From an uncultured Planctomycetaceae bacterium (GTDB taxonomy: Bacteria > Planctomycetota > Phycisphaerae > SM23-33), in NCBI GenBank assembly GCA_964531695.1, contig CAZHEH010000007.1, positions 34,121-98,120 of the forward strand: 64,000 nt of DNA, written 5' to 3'. The notes beneath the pieces were generated by a model. That model was given only the letters and a program-made list of their open reading frames with translations. It was not told the DNA's origin and searched no databases. Positions 41,532 to 62,435 of this stretch are shown piece by piece. The position numbers and the translations under genes are program-made. Position 1 is the first letter of the stretch, and every line of letters begins with the position of its first letter.

Positions 41532-42091
41532 ACCTACGGCTCCTTCAAACACTCAGCACGATGGGTTCCCCAGCGTCGTTCGTCCAAGCTGTGCTTTCCG
41601 TCACGGCGATGGATGTCCGTCTACCCCGGCACCTTGCCGGGACTACTGTTCAAGACCTGACCTAAAGCTGGAAACGATTCGGATGCAATCCCGATTCGTC
41701 GGTCCGGCGTGGAACCTCTCCACGCCCGTCACCGACCCACAACTCCAGGATACTACGGACGGCACCCGGGCAAGTCAACAAAAAATCTCGATTCTTGATC
41801 GCGGCCGTCCGGGGGCTGCCCCCACCTGCCCCGGACCGGGGCCGTGCGCCCCGGCCGGGCAGGGCACGCCGGATGCGCGGGGCCGCCGGGTTCGGGCCCA
41901 ACTCGACCGGGGAACGGGAGAGGGCGGGCGCCCCTTCCGGAGCGCGGGCGCCCTCCCGAGCCCCCCTGCCCCTCGGGCAAGCTGCCCGGCTCTTGGCCCG
42001 AACGGCTACCCGAGTCCGTGGGTATGCGTTACAATGCCGGCTTCCTGTCGCGCCGTCGGGCGCGGAAACGAGACCCGAAAGGGACGAACCG

Positions 42092-42922
42092 ATGTATGAG
42101 GTCATAAGCAACGAGGAGCTGGCCCCCAACGTGCGGCGGCTGGTGGTGCGGGCCGAGCGCGTCGCGGCGGCCCGCAAGCCCGGCCAGTTCGTGATCGTCC
42201 GGGCCGGCCAGGATTGCGAGCGGATCCCCCTGACGATCGCGGACGCCGACGCGGAAGAGGGCACGATCACCCTGATCGTGCAGGCAGTGGGCGAGAGTAC
42301 GACGGATATCGCGTCCGTGCCGCCCGGAGAGGGCCTGCGCGACGTGGCCGGGCCCCTCGGCAAGCCGACGGAGATCGAGAAGTTCGGCCGCGTGGCCTGC
42401 ATCGGCGGCGGCGTCGGCACGGCCGTGCTGTTCCCGCTGGCCAAGGCCCTGGCGGAAGCCGGCAACGACGTGACGGCCATCATCGGAGGGCGGGGCAAGC
42501 CGCAGGTGATCCTGCGGGACGAGCTGGCCGAGTTCTGCTCGGAAGTGCTTGTCACCACGGAGGACGGCTCGCTGGGCACGAAGGGCTTCGTCACGGCCGA
42601 GCTGGAGAAGCTGCTGGCGGATGAGGCCCGCCGACCGGACGCGGTCTACGCCGTCGGCCCGGTGCCGATGATGCGGGCCGTGACCGAGCGGACGCGCGAG
42701 CCGGGCATCAAGACGATCGTGAGCTTGAACCCGATCATGGTCGACGGCACGGGCATGTGCGGCGGCTGCCGGGTGACGGTCGGCGGCGCGGTGAAGTTCG
42801 CCTGCGTGGACGGCCCGGAGTTCGACGGACACGAGGTCGACTTCGTCGAATTGGCCACACGCCAGCGAACGTACGAGGAGGACTACTGCCGCCTGGAGAG
42901 CAAGCTCCGTACGATGGAATAG
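42092..42922 (+). CDS. Ferredoxin-NADP reductase-like / sulfide dehydrogenase beta-type subunit (NfnA/PyrK-like, FAD and [2Fe-2S])
   Basis: FAD/NAD-binding fold plus a C-terminal CGGC…C cluster motif (GMCGGCRVTVGG…C). It is paired with the downstream GltD-like gene. Confidence 0.65.
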   Translation: MYEVISNEELAPNVRRLVVRAERVAAARKPGQFVIVRAGQDCERIPLTIADADAEEGTITLIVQAVGESTTDIASVPPGEGLRDVAGPLGKPTEIEKFGRVACIGGGVGTAVLFPLAKALAEAGNDVTAIIGGRGKPQVILRDELAEFCSEVLVTTEDGSLGTKGFVTAELEKLLADEARRPDAVYAVGPVPMMRAVTERTREPGIKTIVSLNPIMVDGTGMCGGCRVTVGGAVKFACVDGPEFDGHEVDFVELATRQRTYEEDYCRLESKLRTME

Positions 42923-43025: not shown

Positions 43026-44450
43026 ATGAACACGACGAACGACAAACTGACGCCCAAAGAGCGGATGGCCATCGACCGGGTCGAGATGCCCGAGCAGCCG
43101 GCGGCCGAGCGGATCACGAACTTCTCGGAGGTCAACCGGGGCCTGGCCGAGGAAGCGGCCGTGCGCGAGGCCCAGCGATGCCTCCAGTGCCGCAACCGCC
43201 CGTGCGTGGCCGGCTGCCCGGTCGCCGTTCGCATCCCGGAGATGCTGGAGCGGGTCGCCGGGGGCGACTTCGCCGGTGCGGCCGAGATTCTCCAGGTCGA
43301 CAACGCCCTGCCCGCCACGACCGGGCGGGTCTGCCCGCAGGAGGAGCAGTGCGAGCAGCTCTGCGTCCGCGGCAAGAACGGCGAGCCGGTGGCGGTCGGC
43401 TGGCTGGAGCGGTTCGTCGCCGACTGGGCGACGGAACACGGCGAGCCGCCGCCGGCCCCGCCGGTGCTGACCGGCTTCAAGGTCGCGGTGGTCGGCGCCG
43501 GGCCGGGCGGCCTGACGGCCGCGGGCGAGCTGGCCCGCATGGGCCACTCCGTCACCATCTTCGAGGCCCTGCACGAGGCCGGCGGGGTGCTTCGCTACGG
43601 CATCCCCGAGTTCCGCCTGCCCAAGCGGATCATCGACAAGGAGGTCGCCAACCTCGAAGCGCTCGGCGTGCGGCTGGAGATGAACGTGGTGGTCGGCAAG
43701 ACCCTCACGCTCCGGCAGATTCGTGACGAGTTCGACGCCTGCTTCGTCGCCAACGGGGCCGGCCTGCCGCGGTTTCTCAACATCCCCGGCGAGAACCTCA
43801 AGGGCGTGTACTCGGCCAACGAGTACCTGACGCGCGTGAACCTGATGGGCGCGTACCGGGACGATTCCCGCACCCCGGTGGCCCGCGGCGCCACGGCCGT
43901 GGTGTTCGGCGGCGGCAACACGGCGATGGACTCGGTCCGTACGGCCCGGCGGATGGGCTCGGAGCGGGCGGTGATCGCCTACCGCCGCGCGCGGGAGCAG
44001 ATGCCGGCCCGCGCCGAGGAGATCAAGCACGCCGAGGAGGAAGGCATCGAGTTCATGTTCCTCGTCAGCCCTCTGGAGCTTCGCGGCGACGAGGACGGCT
44101 GGCTGCGGTCCGTGCGGCTCCAGCGGATGGAGCTGGGCGAGCCGGACGATTCCGGCCGGCGCCGGCCGGTACCGGTCGAGGGCAGCGAGTTCGAGTTGCC
44201 CGCCCAGATCGCCATCGTGGCCATCGGCACGCGCCCGAACCCGCTGCTGACGGCCGCCAGCCCGGAGCTGACCCTGAACAAGTGGGGCAACATCGAAACC
44301 GGCGAGAAGCACAGGACGTCCCTGCCGGACGTCTTCGCCGGCGGCGACATCGTCCGCGGCGGGGCGACGGTGATCCTCGCAATGGGCGACGGCAAGGAGG
44401 CGGCCGCGGCGATTGACAGATATCTCAAATCCAACCCGGCCGAGAAGTAA
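43026..44450 (+). CDS. NADPH-dependent glutamate synthase small-subunit-like oxidoreductase (NfnB/GltD/SudA family)
   Basis: Two N-terminal Cys clusters (CLQCRNRPCVAGCP, C…C…C) and two Rossmann motifs (VVGAGPGG, VFGGGNTAMD). Confidence 0.8.
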   Translation: MNTTNDKLTPKERMAIDRVEMPEQPAAERITNFSEVNRGLAEEAAVREAQRCLQCRNRPCVAGCPVAVRIPEMLERVAGGDFAGAAEILQVDNALPATTGRVCPQEEQCEQLCVRGKNGEPVAVGWLERFVADWATEHGEPPPAPPVLTGFKVAVVGAGPGGLTAAGELARMGHSVTIFEALHEAGGVLRYGIPEFRLPKRIIDKEVANLEALGVRLEMNVVVGKTLTLRQIRDEFDACFVANGAGLPRFLNIPGENLKGVYSANEYLTRVNLMGAYRDDSRTPVARGATAVVFGGGNTAMDSVRTARRMGSERAVIAYRRAREQMPARAEEIKHAEEEGIEFMFLVSPLELRGDEDGWLRSVRLQRMELGEPDDSGRRRPVPVEGSEFELPAQIAIVAIGTRPNPLLTAASPELTLNKWGNIETGEKHRTSLPDVFAGGDIVRGGATVILAMGDGKEAAAAIDRYLKSNPAEK

Positions 44451-45508: not shown

Positions 45509-47092
45509 CTACGCCAACTCGCCGATCCGCTCGCGGCGAATGGCCTCGGCCGCCGCTTCGTCGATGATCCGCAGGCGGGCCGGTCCTCCCTCGGCCGGGC
45601 AGACCACCACGGCCGCCAGGGTCCGCGAGAGGGGCCACGGCTCCAAGCCCATCGCCAGCAGTTCGCCGACGGCCTCGGCGGCGTCCGCCGCCCGCACCAC
45701 CGCCACCACCGAAGCGCCTTCGCGAGCCGCCTCGAACGCCTCCAGCGCCGTACCGGGGTCGCGCAGGTCCTCGACGCAGACCAGATCCGCGTCCTGCCCC
45801 ATGGCCGCGGACATCGCCTCGGCATATGCCAGCCCGTTCCGCCCGCCGGTCGGGACGTCGTCGGCCTCCTCGCCGGCCACCCCCGCCTGGCGCCCGAGCA
45901 CCAGCACGCTGCACCCCGCGGCCGCCGCTTCGCCCGCCAGCGAGCACAGCAGGGCCCGGCGCCCGCTGCGCGCCGGCCCGGCCAGAACGACCCAAACGCC
46001 GCCGCCGGTCAGCAGCTCCATGAGCCGCGCGCGGTCCACCGCGCTCAGAGCGGCTCGTGCGCCGGCCCCGTCCATCGGGCGGAGGCGCAGAACCAGGCGC
46101 GGGCCCCGAGCCGTCGGGCATGTCGCCACGGCCGCGTAATAGGACGTATCCCCGTGACGTACTTCCATCATTCCCTCGGCCGGTCGCTCCAGCGCCTCGG
46201 CGTCCAGGCCGGCGCGCCCCGCCAGCCGTTCCAGAATCGCCCGGTCCAGCCCCGCGGGCAGACGGGCGGCGAAGCCCGGCTTCTCCCGCAGCACGCCATC
46301 CACGCGAAGGCGGAGCGACAGCCCCTCTTCGCGCGGCTCGAAGTGTACGGCCGTGGCGTGCTTGGCCAGGGCATCCGCCAGCACCGCCTCGATGACCTGG
46401 TCGGCCCGAGCCGGGCAGGCGTCGTCGGCCTCCGGCTCGTCGGCCTCGTGGGGCCCGGCCTCGTTGAGTTCGGCCTCTTGGGGATGGGCCTCCGGGGTAG
46501 TCCTGGGCTCCGGCTCGGGCACCGGCCGAAGCTCGACCTCCAGCTCGTCAAACGCCGGCTCCGCTTCCGGCATTGGGCTCGGCCGCGGCTCGTCTGCCCC
46601 GGACGGCTCCGGGCCGGCCTCGTGTGCGGCCGGCGTTTCGGGCTCGGGCTCCGCCTCGGGCTGCGGCTCGGGCTCGTAGCGGCCCTCATCCGGCTGCGGA
46701 TCGATCGGCTCGGGCTCGACCGGCTCGCGCCCATCCGGCCGGGCCGGCTCGGAATCCGCCACGTCCGGCTCCCACGACTCCGCCTCGCTCGGCGGCTCGC
46801 CCGCCGGCCGACTGGCGATCCGCCGGGCCAGCAGCTTCCGCGCCCGGCGGGCCGATGCCTCTTCGTCCTCCGGCTCGGACGCGGGCTCGACCCTCGCCCC
46901 GGCCATAAGCTCCGCCAGGTCCACGCCGCGGTCTCGGAGGAACCCCACGAGCGATTGCTCGGAGATTCGGATGGCCCCGTCCGGCATGCGACGCACCGGC
47001 AGCCAGCCCTTCTGGATCCACTCGACCACCGTGCCGGGCGTCTGCCCGAGCAACTCGGCGATTTGGTAAGTCGTGAAGGTACGCTGGGACAT
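45509..47092 (-). CDS. Fusion protein: N-terminal MerR/excisionase-type HTH, Pro/Glu-rich linker, then a C-terminal GspE/PilB N-domain-like region with a degenerate Walker A (pseudo-ATPase)
   Basis: MSQRTFTTYQIAELLGQTPGTVVEWIQKGWLPVRRMPDGAIRIS (HTH). About 200 aa of PE-rich low complexity. Then VIEAVLADALAKHATAVHFEPREEGLSLRLRVDGVL (T2SSE_N-like) and GVWVVLAGPARSGRRALLCSLA, which is GxxxxGRR rather than GKT. Confidence 0.5.
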   Translation of the reverse strand: MSQRTFTTYQIAELLGQTPGTVVEWIQKGWLPVRRMPDGAIRISEQSLVGFLRDRGVDLAELMAGARVEPASEPEDEEASARRARKLLARRIASRPAGEPPSEAESWEPDVADSEPARPDGREPVEPEPIDPQPDEGRYEPEPQPEAEPEPETPAAHEAGPEPSGADEPRPSPMPEAEPAFDELEVELRPVPEPEPRTTPEAHPQEAELNEAGPHEADEPEADDACPARADQVIEAVLADALAKHATAVHFEPREEGLSLRLRVDGVLREKPGFAARLPAGLDRAILERLAGRAGLDAEALERPAEGMMEVRHGDTSYYAAVATCPTARGPRLVLRLRPMDGAGARAALSAVDRARLMELLTGGGVWVVLAGPARSGRRALLCSLAGEAAAAGCSVLVLGRQAGVAGEEADDVPTGGRNGLAYAEAMSAAMGQDADLVCVEDLRDPGTALEAFEAAREGASVVAVVRAADAAEAVGELLAMGLEPWPLSRTLAAVVVCPAEGGPARLRIIDEAAAEAIRRERIGELA

Positions 47093-47256
47093 CGAGGGCC
47101 TCCGGTCTCCCGTCGGGGGCATTGTCCCACCCCCCCGCCGATCCGTCAACCGGGCCCACGGCCGGGCTTGTAAGGGGGCGAGGCAGCGGCTATGCTCGAT
47201 GTTTCGGCGCGGCGGGACAAGTCGTGCCGTCAACCCGAACGAGAAGGAACCTACCC

Positions 47257-48357
47257 ATGCGGATTGCGGTAATCGGCGGAGACGGGACCGGACCGGAAGT
47301 GGTGGCCGAGGGGCTGAAGGTGCTCCGGGCGGTCGCGGCGAAGGTCGGCTTCGAATACGAGACGAAGGACTTCAACGTCAGCGGCGATCGATACCTCGCC
47401 GCGGGCGGCGACCCGAACGTCGCCTCGATGCCTATCGTCAGCGAAGAGGAGATCGACGAGCTTCGCGGCTACGACGCGATCTACCTCGGCGCGGTCGGCC
47501 ACCCGGACATCGCCCCCGGCATCCTGGAGAAGGGCCTGCTGCTGCGGCTGCGCTTCGCGCTGGACCAGTACATCAACCTTCGCCCGGTGAAGCTCTACCC
47601 CGGCGTCGAGACCCCGCTGGCGGGCAAGGGCCCGGAGGACATCGACTTCGTCGTCGTCCGCGAGAACACCGAGGGGCTCTACACGGGCATGGGCGGCAAC
47701 CAGTACCAAGGCACCGCCAACGAGGTCGCCACGCAGGTGATGTGCAACACGCGCCACGGCGTGGAGCGGGCGATTCGCTACGCCTTCGAGCTGTGCAAGC
47801 GGCGGAACGACAAGGGGCGGCTGACGCTCGTCGGCAAGACGAACGTACTGACCTTCGCCCATGGGCTGTGGTACCGCGCCTTCTGCGAGATCGGCGAGGA
47901 ATACCCCGACATCGAGAAGGACTACAACCACGTCGACGCCTGCTGCATGTGGTTCGTCAAGAACCCCGAGTACTACGACACGATCGTCGTGTGTAACATG
48001 TTCGGGGACATCATCACGGACCTCGGCGCGATGATTCAGGGCGGAATGGGCGTGGCCGCGGGCGGGAACATCAACCCCTCCGGCGTGTCGATGTTCGAGC
48101 CCATCGGCGGCTCGGCGCCCAAGTACACCGGGCAGAACGTCATCAACCCGGTCGCGGCGATCGCCTCGCTGGCCATGCTGCTGCGCGAGACGGGGCAGAA
48201 CACGGGCGAAGCCAAACTCATCGACGCCGGCGACCGCGTCGAGGCCGCCATCATGGCCGTCACCCCCAAGATGGACAGCCAGTCCGCCAAGGGGATGGGC
48301 TACTCGACCACCGAGGTCGGCGACCTGGTCGCCCAGGCCGTGACGGACGCGGAATAG
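47257..48357 (+). CDS. Isocitrate / isopropylmalate dehydrogenase family enzyme (LeuB-like, 366 aa)
   Basis: MRIAVIGGDGTGPEV…NLRPV…GSAPKY motifs of the beta-decarboxylating dehydrogenase family. Confidence 0.75.
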   Translation: MRIAVIGGDGTGPEVVAEGLKVLRAVAAKVGFEYETKDFNVSGDRYLAAGGDPNVASMPIVSEEEIDELRGYDAIYLGAVGHPDIAPGILEKGLLLRLRFALDQYINLRPVKLYPGVETPLAGKGPEDIDFVVVRENTEGLYTGMGGNQYQGTANEVATQVMCNTRHGVERAIRYAFELCKRRNDKGRLTLVGKTNVLTFAHGLWYRAFCEIGEEYPDIEKDYNHVDACCMWFVKNPEYYDTIVVCNMFGDIITDLGAMIQGGMGVAAGGNINPSGVSMFEPIGGSAPKYTGQNVINPVAAIASLAMLLRETGQNTGEAKLIDAGDRVEAAIMAVTPKMDSQSAKGMGYSTTEVGDLVAQAVTDAE

Positions 48358-60606: not shown

Positions 60607-61317
60607 CTACGCCATCAGGACCTTCAGAATCTGGCCCATTCGCTCGTCCTGTTTGGAAATCATCTTCATGTTCGCCTGGTAGAGGCGGGTGATCTGGATC
60701 AGGTCCACCAACTCCCGGACCGTCGAGACGTTCGACCCCTCCTGGAAGCCGCTGCTGACGGTCGCCTCCGTCGCCGCGGTCGGGCTGGCCGTGTCCGGCG
60801 CGGAGAAGCAGCTCGCCCCGACGGCCGTCAGGACCGACGGATCCTCGAACCGCACGATCTGAAGCCGGCCGATCGCCTGGCCCGCGGCCGTGACCTGCCC
60901 GTCGCGACCGATCCCGATCTGTGAGGGCGACACCGACTCCGGCAGCACGATCACCCCGCCCACGCCGGCCACGAGCCGCCCGGCTCCGTCCACGAGCTGC
61001 CGGCGATCGTTCGGGCGGAACACGCCGCTCCGGGTGTACACCCGCCCGCCGGGAACGTCCGGCGTCTCGACGACGAAGAAACCGTCGCCCGAGATCGCCG
61101 CGTCCAACGGGCGCCCGGTGTGGACGAGCCGGCCCTGGCTGAAGTCCACGGCCGGGGCGGCGACCACCGGGCTGCCGGCACCGTTCCCGGCCTCTCTGCA
61201 CGCGGCCAGCCGCCGCTTGAAGCCGGGCGTGGCGGCGTTGGCGAGGTTCTCCGTCGCCGTCCGGAACTGGTGGCTCAGCGACTCGATGCCACTGCTTGTG
61301 CTGATCGGTATGCTCAT
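60607..61317 (-). CDS. flgF: Flagellar basal-body rod protein FlgF
   Basis: MSIPISTSSGIESLSHQFRTATENLANAATPGFKR…VRELVDLIQITRLYQANMKMISKQDERMGQIL. Confidence 0.75.
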   Translation of the reverse strand: MSIPISTSSGIESLSHQFRTATENLANAATPGFKRRLAACREAGNGAGSPVVAAPAVDFSQGRLVHTGRPLDAAISGDGFFVVETPDVPGGRVYTRSGVFRPNDRRQLVDGAGRLVAGVGGVIVLPESVSPSQIGIGRDGQVTAAGQAIGRLQIVRFEDPSVLTAVGASCFSAPDTASPTAATEATVSSGFQEGSNVSTVRELVDLIQITRLYQANMKMISKQDERMGQILKVLMA

Positions 61318-62435
61318 GCGTCACTCGGCTCGGCCGATGGGGCCGCGGCGCCGGTCTGGGCGGCGTTCGTCGCCCGCACCAGCTCGGCGATTTGCTCGTG
61401 GTTCAGGCCGGTCAGTTCGACGGCCAGCACGGCCTTGCCGTCCTCGTTGTGCATCACGCGGTGCACCGTGCCGACCGCCTGGAGCTTCCGCTCCGCGTCG
61501 AGCTGCACGACGGCCAGGATGTTCTGGCCCGCGCGGGCTTCCAGGTCCGTCTCGAGCCGCATGCCCGGCCCGGCGATCTCCACCACCGTCCCCGGAACAA
61601 ACTGCGGGGCGTCCGAGGCGTCCGCCGCTTCCACGCCCGCCATGCCCGCCAACTGAGCCGGCCGTTCCGTCGGCACGCGCGGGAAGCGCCGCCGGTTGAT
61701 GTAGCGGAACCGCGACGGGCGGTTCAGAACGAAGCGGTTCCGCTCCCGCCGCAGCACCGAGGCATCGAACTCCCACACCGTGCCGCCGTTGGGATACCGG
61801 ACCAGCCAGCTCTCGCCCGGCTCGGTCGAGACCGTCGGACCGTCCGATTCGATGACCAGCTCGCGCTCGGTGACCTCCCGAATCGTGCCGGTGAAGTCGC
61901 CGCCGCGCCCGCGATGCACGACTGCGACCTGCCCGCCCGCCTCCAACGTCTCATACGCCCGCGGCGCTGCGGCGGCCGCGACGGGGGCGGCCGTCCGGAG
62001 GCCGAGCTTTTCCCGGAGCGACTCGGCCGTGGTGAGGACGCTCTCCTGCTGCTCGGTCGGCAGCGCGCGGAAGGCGCGGGACTCCACGTAGCCGGACAGC
62101 CCCCGAGCGAACGCCACCTGCGAGGTCAGCACGATGGTGGGGTCGCTCAGGCCGGCCTGCCGCGTGACCCGCCAGGCCAGGCCGGCCTCGTCCTCGGTCA
62201 GCCCGAGCCGTTCGGCGGGCCCGTCGAGCGCCCGCCGCCCGCGGCGGAGCAGCACGCTCCGGCCGACCAGCAGCGCCACCGACCCGAGCACGAGCAGGCC
62301 CAGCACGGCGATCAGCGCGACCCACAGCCACCAGCCGCCGGCGTCGCTGGGCATGTTCTGGGCGGCCTCGAACCGCTCGACCGCGTTCAGGACCGAGAAG
62401 GGCGAGGCCGGATCCGTTGTGACCGGAACGTTCAT
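61314..62435 (-). CDS. Membrane-anchored PilZ-domain protein (YcgR-like candidate c-di-GMP receptor) between flgE and flgF
   Basis: N-terminal TM helix (WWLWVALIAVLGLLVLGSVALLV), an RRRFPR (RxxxR) motif and a downstream beta-barrel-like C-terminus. Confidence 0.45.
   Translation of the reverse strand: MNVPVTTDPASPFSVLNAVERFEAAQNMPSDAGGWWLWVALIAVLGLLVLGSVALLVGRSVLLRRGRRALDGPAERLGLTEDEAGLAWRVTRQAGLSDPTIVLTSQVAFARGLSGYVESRAFRALPTEQQESVLTTAESLREKLGLRTAAPVAAAAAPRAYETLEAGGQVAVVHRGRGGDFTGTIREVTERELVIESDGPTVSTEPGESWLVRYPNGGTVWEFDASVLRRERNRFVLNRPSRFRYINRRRFPRVPTERPAQLAGMAGVEAADASDAPQFVPGTVVEIAGPGMRLETDLEARAGQNILAVVQLDAERKLQAVGTVHRVMHNEDGKAVLAVELTGLNHEQIAELVRATNAAQTGAAAPSAEPSDA

Follow-up and report, generated by a model that had tools for sequence, protein, structure and literature searches.

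A stretch of 64,000 nucleotides from an uncultured Planctomycetaceae bacterium (assembly GCA_964531695.1, contig CAZHEH010000007.1, positions 34,121 to 98,120), referred to here as the window, contains on its minus strand a gene encoding a protein of 527 amino acids (aa). The product was predicted to consist of an N-terminal winged helix-turn-helix (HTH) domain, an acidic disordered linker and the core of a PilB/GspE-type ATPase in which the catalytic motifs are degenerate (Table 1). A preliminary description of this DNA had called the protein a pseudo-ATPase DNA-binding fusion. As an architecture this holds, with DNA binding predicted from sequence, and it extends to at least 136 protein clusters at 50% identity. 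Database protein P0001 matches the window protein with 100% identity. A longer reading frame (45509..47233, minus strand, 574 aa) begins at a TTG codon. The TTG start at 47233 was ruled out, as the promoter and the GGAGG site are within the extension and the database proteins begin MSQRTF. The ATG at 47092 is the true start because the promoter and Shine-Dalgarno site sit between the TTG and the ATG, and the coordinates first reported for the gene were exact.

Table 1. Features of the pseudo-ATPase fusion gene and its surroundings (positions are those of the window).
Feature	Position	Strand	Details
Family gene, open reading frame (ORF) of 527 aa	45509-47092	-	ATG start at 47092; protein begins MSQRTF
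Sigma70-type promoter, extended -10	47121..47149	-	TTGACG, 17 nt spacing, (TG)G-GACAAT; 1 site vs 0.0 in shuffles
Shine-Dalgarno site GGAGG	47099-47103	-	6 nt 5' of the ATG at 47092; direct sequence reading
Predicted winged HTH, MerR/excisionase/BldC type	46895..47092	-	aa 1-66; Pfam, profile search, structure models
Predicted intrinsically disordered acidic Pro/Glu/Ala-rich linker	46418..46894	-	aa 67-225, 159 aa
N2 subdomain of PilB/GspE ATPase core	46058..46417	-	aa 226-345; Pfam, PDB alignment, Foldseek, model
RecA-like C-terminal domain of PilB/GspE core	45509..46057	-	aa 346-527 plus stop; catalytically degenerate
Walker A remnant GPARSGRR	45956..45979	-	aa 372-379; canonical GPTGSGK(T/S); family consensus (G/A)PPRSGR
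Asp-box remnant VLGRQAGVAGEEADDV	45854..45901	-	Canonical T(I/V)EDP(I/V)E
Walker B-like strand DADLVCVEDLRD	45758..45793	-	Canonical DPDVIxVGEIRD; Asp at the catalytic Glu position
His-box remnant EGASVVAVVRAADA	45680..45721	-	Canonical TGHLVxSTLHTNDA; both His gone
Family signature MGLEPWPLS	45626..45652	-	Canonical MG(V/I)EP(F/Y)L(V/I)
Hypothetical ORF, 283 aa	44561..45412	+	Convergent, between gltD-like gene and family gene
NfnAB/SudAB-like pair, DHODB_Fe-S gene (FAD/NAD subunit)	41795..42922	+	
NfnAB/SudAB-like pair, GltD-like gene	43026..44450	+	
leuB	47257-48357		Divergent from family gene; NF002898, 479 bits vs cut-off 393
Flagellar operon beyond leuB	63927 to 48450	-	flgE, PilZ-domain gene, flgF/G, flgA, flgH, flgI, flgN, flgK, flgL, glycosyltransferases, tetratricopeptide repeat (TPR) gene, fliT-like gene
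PilZ-domain gene	61314-62435	-	Within flagellar operon

The C-terminal part of the protein aligned to the assembly ATPases of type IV pili and type II secretion systems (T2SS). Pfam model PF00437 (T2SSE) matched aa 232-496 with 84.5 bits against a cut-off of 24.9, covering profile positions 10-273 of 370. The NCBIfam equivalogs for GspE, PilB, TfpB and ComGA matched the core with scores of about 90 bits, whereas their cut-offs are 300-850 (92 against 630 for GspE and 91 against 676 for PilB). When the PDB was searched using phmmer, aa 210-496 aligned to the N2 domain (N2D) and C-terminal domain (CTD) core of T. thermophilus PilF, V. cholerae EpsE/GspE, and Myxococcus and Geobacter PilB with an E value of about 1e-22. 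The AlphaFold2 model was confident at aa 225-527, and its top Foldseek matches were 5zfr, 5oiu, 1p9w and 5tsh (PilB, PilF, EpsE), also with E values of about 1e-22. Homology and the predicted fold thus place the protein in the PilB/GspE/PilT (PF00437) superfamily. The preliminary description had reported a GspE-N-like domain followed by a P-loop remnant in this region. The whole PF00437 core is present, comprising N2 and the RecA-like CTD, while the degenerate Walker A that it reported was found as described.

The catalytic motifs were compared by aligning the window protein to PilF and GspE. The Asp box is represented by VLGRQAGVAGEE in place of (T/S)(I/V)EDP(V/I)E, the site reading GRQAGVAGEE where assembly ATPases have EDPVE. 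The Walker B site reads VEDLRD, and the His-box site reads EGA...VRAA compared to TGH...LHTN. The arginine finger of N2D (within aa 226-345) is replaced, with ERPAEGM in the position of the canonical RLPQDGR. Among the features of a functional assembly ATPase, the window protein lacks an intact Walker A, Asp box, His box, Walker B Glu, zinc motif, N1 domain (N1D) and partner genes. In PilB, PilT and GspE none of the Walker A, Asp box, His box and arginine finger is dispensable (reviewed in part in PMC11656802). As far as can be judged from the sequence, a protein with these losses would be unable to hydrolyze ATP by the mechanism accepted for the superfamily (reviewed in part in PMC11656802). 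A still-active ATPase with unconventional motifs, such as a DNA-dependent motor, is very improbable and was effectively excluded. The fold is intact with a high predicted local distance difference test score (pLDDT), GxxxxG is still present and the Walker B aspartate is near-invariant in the family, all of which fit such an enzyme. Set against these, the Walker A Lys and Ser/Thr have both become Arg, and the Asp-box glutamates, both His-box histidines and the arginine finger are gone, motifs whose necessity in working relatives is established.

The same degeneration was found across a family. A word-index search returned eight relatives only and a later word-index search with a 40-sequence profile added none. 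An exhaustive profile search of 1.84 billion representatives gave 150 matches, all with E values of 1e-89 or lower. Together with the word-index relatives these made 155 sequences, and the 136 with an N-terminal HTH were taken as the family set. At least 136 clusters (50% identity) therefore share the HTH, a linker of variable length and the PilB-like core. The Walker A Lys was kept in 11 of the 136 HTH-bearing representatives and was Arg in 63. The first His of the His box was kept in 8/136, the last Glu of the Asp box in 26/136 and the Arg of the N2D DGR motif in 31/136. The first Asp of Walker B (131/136) and the Cys4 zinc motif (122/136) were kept in most. The P-loop of the family carries a new conserved motif, (G/A)PPRSGR, and a second such motif is MGLEPWPL(A/S). 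Conservation of PPRSGR and EPWPL argues for a kept structure with an altered function. Judged by these alignments, the loss of catalytic motifs holds at family level and the family is a predicted pseudo-enzyme branch.

The HTH-bearing representatives P0081, P0089, P0096 and P0030 keep a Walker A GK[ST] without the Asp and His boxes. These members could be intermediates which bind but do not hydrolyze nucleotide. Fifteen of the top profile matches (829-1047 aa) were rejected as family members, as they have no HTH, carry mostly canonical motifs and are genuine ATPases. Large extra regions were seen in these HTH-less proteins, which include P0045, P0069, P0085, P0104 and P0111. Their sequences suggest a distinct branch of active multidomain proteins near the family.

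The window protein also lacks the Cys4 zinc module and terminal helical bundle, with a single cysteine, C498, left in the motif. This short form was shared with P0002, P0004 and five other members. The junction is in frame and the next strand and helix are kept, reading ...RLRIIDEAAAEAIRR in the window and AVTYVD..AAAIRAG in P0004 and P0084. The window copy thus appears to be a recurrent short variant without the zinc module. The missing module, kept in 122 of the 136 relatives, and the loss of catalytic motifs would both be expected of a decaying remnant of a full-length PilB/GspE, frameshifted or truncated, with a chance N-terminal extension. A frameshifted remnant was the alternative raised in the preliminary description. 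The ratio of nonsynonymous to synonymous substitution rates (dN/dS), calculated by the Nei-Gojobori method for the window gene and its 92%-identical orthologue in locus L031, contradicts this. It was 0.23 for the whole gene at a dS of 0.12, and 0.06 for the HTH, 0.33 for the linker and 0.23 for the ATPase-like part. The sequence comparison indicates a real gene on which purifying selection acts. The in-frame short form recurs in diverged relatives (P0004, P0084, P0101 and P0103, down to 42% identity), the architecture is kept in at least 136 clusters and the promoter is conserved. The next ORF is convergent and lies only about 96 bp from the stop codon, which leaves no space for a frame-shifted C-terminus. 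Decay was effectively excluded and can be given almost no weight.

The N-terminal domain was predicted to contain helices at residues 8-15, 19-27 and 45-54 with a wing at residues 33-44. Pfam HTH_17 matched aa 6-55 of the window protein with 26.6 bits, slightly below the cut-off of 27, and it matched 37/40 family members at E values of 0.01 or lower (best 4e-10). The Pfam MerR and MerR_1 models matched just 2/40. A profile of 35 heads (aa 1-68) was searched against the PDB and matched 8jbs, 6ama, 6amk, 4j2n and 5i41 with E values from 8e-7 to 1e-3. The top match, 8jbs (8e-7), is the MerR-type HTH of a cobalamin-binding protein, and the others are BldC (6ama, 6amk), mycobacteriophage Xis (4j2n) and RacA (5i41). 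The stand-alone HTH model had a pLDDT of 86 and the full-length AlphaFold2 model was confident at aa 1-60. The HTH model superposed best on DNA-bound BldC, with a target-normalized template modeling (TM) score of 0.74-0.81 and a root mean square deviation of 1.6-2.4 Å, followed by NmlR/MerR, Xis, lambda gpNu1, RacA and CarH. The best sequence and structure matches are DNA-binding proteins, several of them solved on DNA. DNA binding by the HTH can reasonably be inferred from this homology.

Among the 136 heads the core residues A12, L14, L15, V22, W25, G29, L31, F51, L52 and G56 are near-invariant. Across the family R4, Q10, W25, G29, R42, F51 and G56 are nearly invariant. The conserved basic or polar residues R4, Q10, T18, K28, R35 and R42 lie at helix N-termini and in the wing, which are typical backbone-contact positions. 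In the AlphaFold2 model a short helix connects the HTH to the disordered acidic linker. A long coiled-coil dimerization helix and C-terminal effector region, the classical MerR features, were not found after the HTH of the window protein. Without the coiled coil and effector domain it is not a classical MerR regulator.

The linker of the window protein is composed of 23% Glu, 21% Pro, 14% Ala and 7% Asp, with a net charge of -0.21 per residue. The AlphaFold2 model had a pLDDT below 50 over aa 98-224. The Pro/Glu-rich low-complexity linker reported earlier was confirmed, at 159 aa and not the approximately 200 aa given. Linkers in the family have a median length of 107 aa, the shortest being 2 aa and the longest 442 aa. 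In 93% of members the linker has a net acidic charge, and the median contents are 19% Asp+Glu and 18.5% Pro. The linker DNA (46418-46894, minus strand) contains weak short tandem repeats with periods of 6, 12, 15 and 24 nt. The linker of the 92%-identical orthologue has in-frame indels and is 14 aa shorter. The repeats and indels are consistent with repeat-driven length change of an acidic tether.

The pattern TTGAC-N14-16-TG-N4-AAT had one match in the 64-kb window, the promoter of the family gene, compared to 0.04 expected. It was found directly 5' of the family gene, on the gene strand, in 23/34 fetched loci. These sites include L002 9944-9972, L005 7547-7575, L007 9895-9924, L015 6061-6089, L016 9930-9958, L017 9939-9967 and L033 9839-9867, among others. 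The sole extra match elsewhere in the approximately 400 kb of fetched loci was in L010. The promoter is common to family members that are only about 30% identical. Alignment of 17 distinct promoters showed a T-rich element at about -45 (TTTGC), TTGAC(G/C), GTG and nnAnAAT, with 28 to about 130 nt between the -10 element and the start codon. An autoregulatory operator was rejected, as the aligned regions show promoter elements only. The family gene is probably expressed from a near-consensus promoter that, going by these alignments, is conserved across the family. This offers a concrete handle on expression in the poorly studied class Phycisphaerae.

The preliminary description had identified a GspE-N-like domain (T2SSE_N/MshEN) in the protein and proposed a transcription factor responsive to cyclic di-GMP (c-di-GMP) or another second messenger. 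PF05157 (T2SSE_N/MshEN) had no match in the window protein even at an E value of 1 and matched 0/40 diverse family members. The 24-residue MshEN motif RLGxx(L/V/I)(L/V/I)xxG(L/V/I)(L/V/I)xxxxLxxxLxxQ was absent from the window protein when searched as a regular expression. The region so named corresponds to N2D and CTD of PilB, PilF and GspE. The negative result is informative because canonical PilB homologues from the same word-index search (P0010-P0022) do carry PF05157. A lack of similarity to T2SSE_N/MshEN is the outcome that the preliminary description had named as refuting its reading, and the argument for c-di-GMP sensing fails because the domain on which it was based is missing.

FleQ/FlrA-type regulators combine an ATPase domain with an HTH and bind c-di-GMP at the AAA+ site. 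With this precedent, a second-messenger-responsive transcription factor could in principle read its ligand by a remodeled nucleotide pocket in place of an MshEN-like domain. A ligand with a phosphate group could be accommodated in the absence of Mg2+ by the P-loop PPRSGR, which is conserved and rich in Arg, GK[ST] is kept in a few members (P0081, P0089, P0096) and a PilZ-domain gene lies within the neighboring flagellar operon. The informative PF05157 negative and the missing motif count against it, and such a factor is considered improbable. What is left of the c-di-GMP idea is generic ligand sensing at the degenerate pocket, to which this low probability applies.

The surroundings of the family gene were compared in about 23 lineages. 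No pilus or T2SS genes (pilM/N/O/C, gspL/F, pilin) adjoined the gene in these loci and it stands alone. No conserved operon partners were found. Divergent transcription from a leuB-like gene, noted in the preliminary description, was confirmed and the neighbor is a true leuB. The divergent arrangement also holds in L002. A leuB gene is 5' of the family gene only in the window, L002 and L028/L029, and as the 92%-identical L031 has none at this position the arrangement carries no functional weight. In at least nine loci, including L002, L005, L011, L012, L018, L023, L024, L028 and L030, the NfnAB-like pair and the family gene are convergent. This was read as lineage synteny with no obvious functional link. 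The hypothetical 283-aa ORF had no Pfam, NCBIfam or PADLOC match. Its translation has an apparent N-terminal hydrophobic segment, and the ORF is found in L031 and not in L002. A defense system was also considered and rejected, PADLOC giving just a weak HTH match to mad1 (E value 2e-4).

Flagellar or chemotaxis operons adjoin the family gene in three of the approximately 23 lineages, namely the window/L002, P0089 and P0133. The gene for P0089 (27% identical) is on the same strand as, and between, a cheY-X-A-R-D-Y-X-B operon and a fliK-flgD-flgE-pilZ-flgF-G-A-H-I operon. The gene for P0133 (35% identical) is convergent to a flgJ-flgN-flgK-flgL-GT-GT-GT-TPR-fliT-like operon (GT, glycosyltransferase) and 19 bp from its end. 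By a rough estimate this adjacency exceeds chance, as flagellar and chemotaxis clusters make up about 1-2% of a genome and the expectation is well below one. The link to flagella or motility is a lead only. If true, it would make the family a candidate motility regulator. The glycosyltransferases of the window operon are of the TPR-GT1 and GT2 types, and embedded glycosyltransferase/TPR genes recur in L034. Their recurrence suggests that a module for flagellar glycosylation is conserved in Phycisphaerae.

It is tentatively proposed that the window gene encodes a functional and expressed member of the family, with a winged HTH, an acidic tether and a dead N2D-CTD core, and that the protein is an oligomeric DNA-binding factor using the dead motor module as a scaffold or sensor. 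DNA binding, oligomerization and a regulatory role are inferred for the family. The dead module would keep its fold and act as an oligomerization scaffold, probably ring-like as in its hexameric relatives. It may also bind a ligand or partner, possibly a phosphate-bearing ligand at the remodeled PPRSGR loop. Each subunit would offer a DNA-binding head on a flexible acidic leash, giving multivalent binding to DNA. The leash might be an entropic spacer or an autoinhibitory intramolecular DNA mimic that tunes binding. The assembly could then serve as a transcriptional regulator or as a nucleoid-organizing or anchoring factor. A signaling role of PilB that is independent of hydrolysis provides a precedent (PMC11656802).

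A number of observations weigh against this proposal. Conserved sequence-specific DNA recognition was not evident from residue conservation in the 136 heads. On the putative recognition helix the outward-facing residues (20, 21, 23, 24 and 27) are variable and often acidic, with position 24 mostly acidic or Gln, and the median net charge of the HTH across the family is 0. A variable recognition helix and a neutral HTH are consistent with a domain that binds DNA weakly or without specificity, or that binds protein. No palindromic operator was present at the family promoters in the 17 distinct regions aligned. A promoter this close to consensus could indicate strong expression, and specific transcription factors are not usually expressed so highly. 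In vitro, GspE itself forms hexamers poorly. Flagellar adjacency was limited to 3 of about 23 lineages, and two of the three share one neighboring operon, which may be inherited synteny.

The same properties of the head bear on the main competing explanation, in which the protein works as an accessory, regulator or decoy at a nanomachine in the membrane, either the type IV pilus, the T2SS or the flagellum. The winged HTH would here replace N1 as an interaction or localization module and would not bind DNA, and the dead PilB-like module would dock in the place of the real motor ATPase or join mixed rings. The HTH does sit at the N1D position on a flexible linker as in GspE and PilB, its recognition-helix surface is variable or acidic and its charge neutral. 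The zinc module needed in real motors is kept in 122/136 members, and flagellar/chemotaxis operons adjoin the gene in three lineages. The close structural relatives of the head are all DNA binders, however, and no pilM/N/O/C, gspL/F or pilin genes adjoin the gene in about 23 loci. The flagellum also has its own ATPase, FliI, which is unrelated to the PilB/GspE class. Overall this explanation appears fairly unlikely.

A bolder form of the proposed DNA-binding factor would be a class-wide regulator of Phycisphaerae in which the motor ring has turned into a non-catalytic hub, sensing a ligand or partner and carrying six BldC-like heads on acidic leashes. This is doubtful and regarded as quite unlikely. 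If true, a hub with six heads would be a new architecture for a bacterial transcription or nucleoid factor and might control flagellar and motility genes. To our knowledge the regulators of these genes in Planctomycetota are uncharacterized.

All members with an organism name were Phycisphaerae or uncultured Planctomycetota metagenome-assembled genomes (MAGs), and so far the family appears to be confined to Phycisphaerae. Database names of members include "Flp pilus assembly ATPase TadA", "ATPase, T2SS/T4P/T4SS family" and "GspE/PilB-like". The family is thus misannotated as working ATPases, and such names inflate the counts of pili and secretion systems in Phycisphaerae MAGs. No description of an HTH-T2SSE fusion or of a PilB-family pseudo-ATPase was found in the searched literature, whose coverage was incomplete so that this is absence of evidence only. 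The searched literature on Planctomycetes held nothing relevant to such a family. The architecture and its conservation are unreported in the literature searched. PilB, GspE and PilT are textbook hexameric motors. A selected pseudo-enzyme branch with an HTH head would show a motor repurposed as a regulatory scaffold.

Comparison with known systems places the family among several types of protein. FleQ/FlrA are alike in concept, pairing an oligomeric ASCE-class ATPase module with an HTH and having a possible flagellar link, a resemblance that does not reflect homology. The ATPase of FleQ is of an unrelated lineage, an AAA+ sigma54 activator compared to the PilT/GspE class here. FleQ carries its HTH at the C-terminus and has an active ATPase, whereas in the family the HTH is N-terminal and the ATPase predicted to be dead. 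Unlike FleQ, the family gave no evidence of sigma54 or c-di-GMP. MshE has the MshEN domain (PF05157), which is N-terminal in many PilB, GspE and MshE ATPases and absent from the window protein and 40/40 members.

For aa 1-66 the best structural and profile matches are BldC and other minimal winged HTH proteins (Xis and the RacA DNA-binding domain). Like BldC and unlike classical MerR proteins, the head has no long coiled-coil dimerization helix. The recognition helix of BldC has basic K/T/R where the family heads have variable or acidic residues. Unlike BldC, the head is joined by an acidic disordered stretch to a further module about 300 aa in length, and its DNA binding is predicted.

The N2D and RecA-like CTD of PilB, PilF and GspE (EpsE) are homologous to the window core, with E values of about 1e-22 by both sequence and Foldseek. 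As in PilB and GspE, an accessory N-terminal domain is carried on a flexible linker and the Cys4 zinc motif is kept by most family members. The family differs from these motors in the loss of the Walker A Lys, Asp box, His box and N2D Arg finger, and the window copy is also without the zinc module. It differs too at the N-terminus, where N1D/GSPII/MshEN is absent and the HTH head stands in its place.

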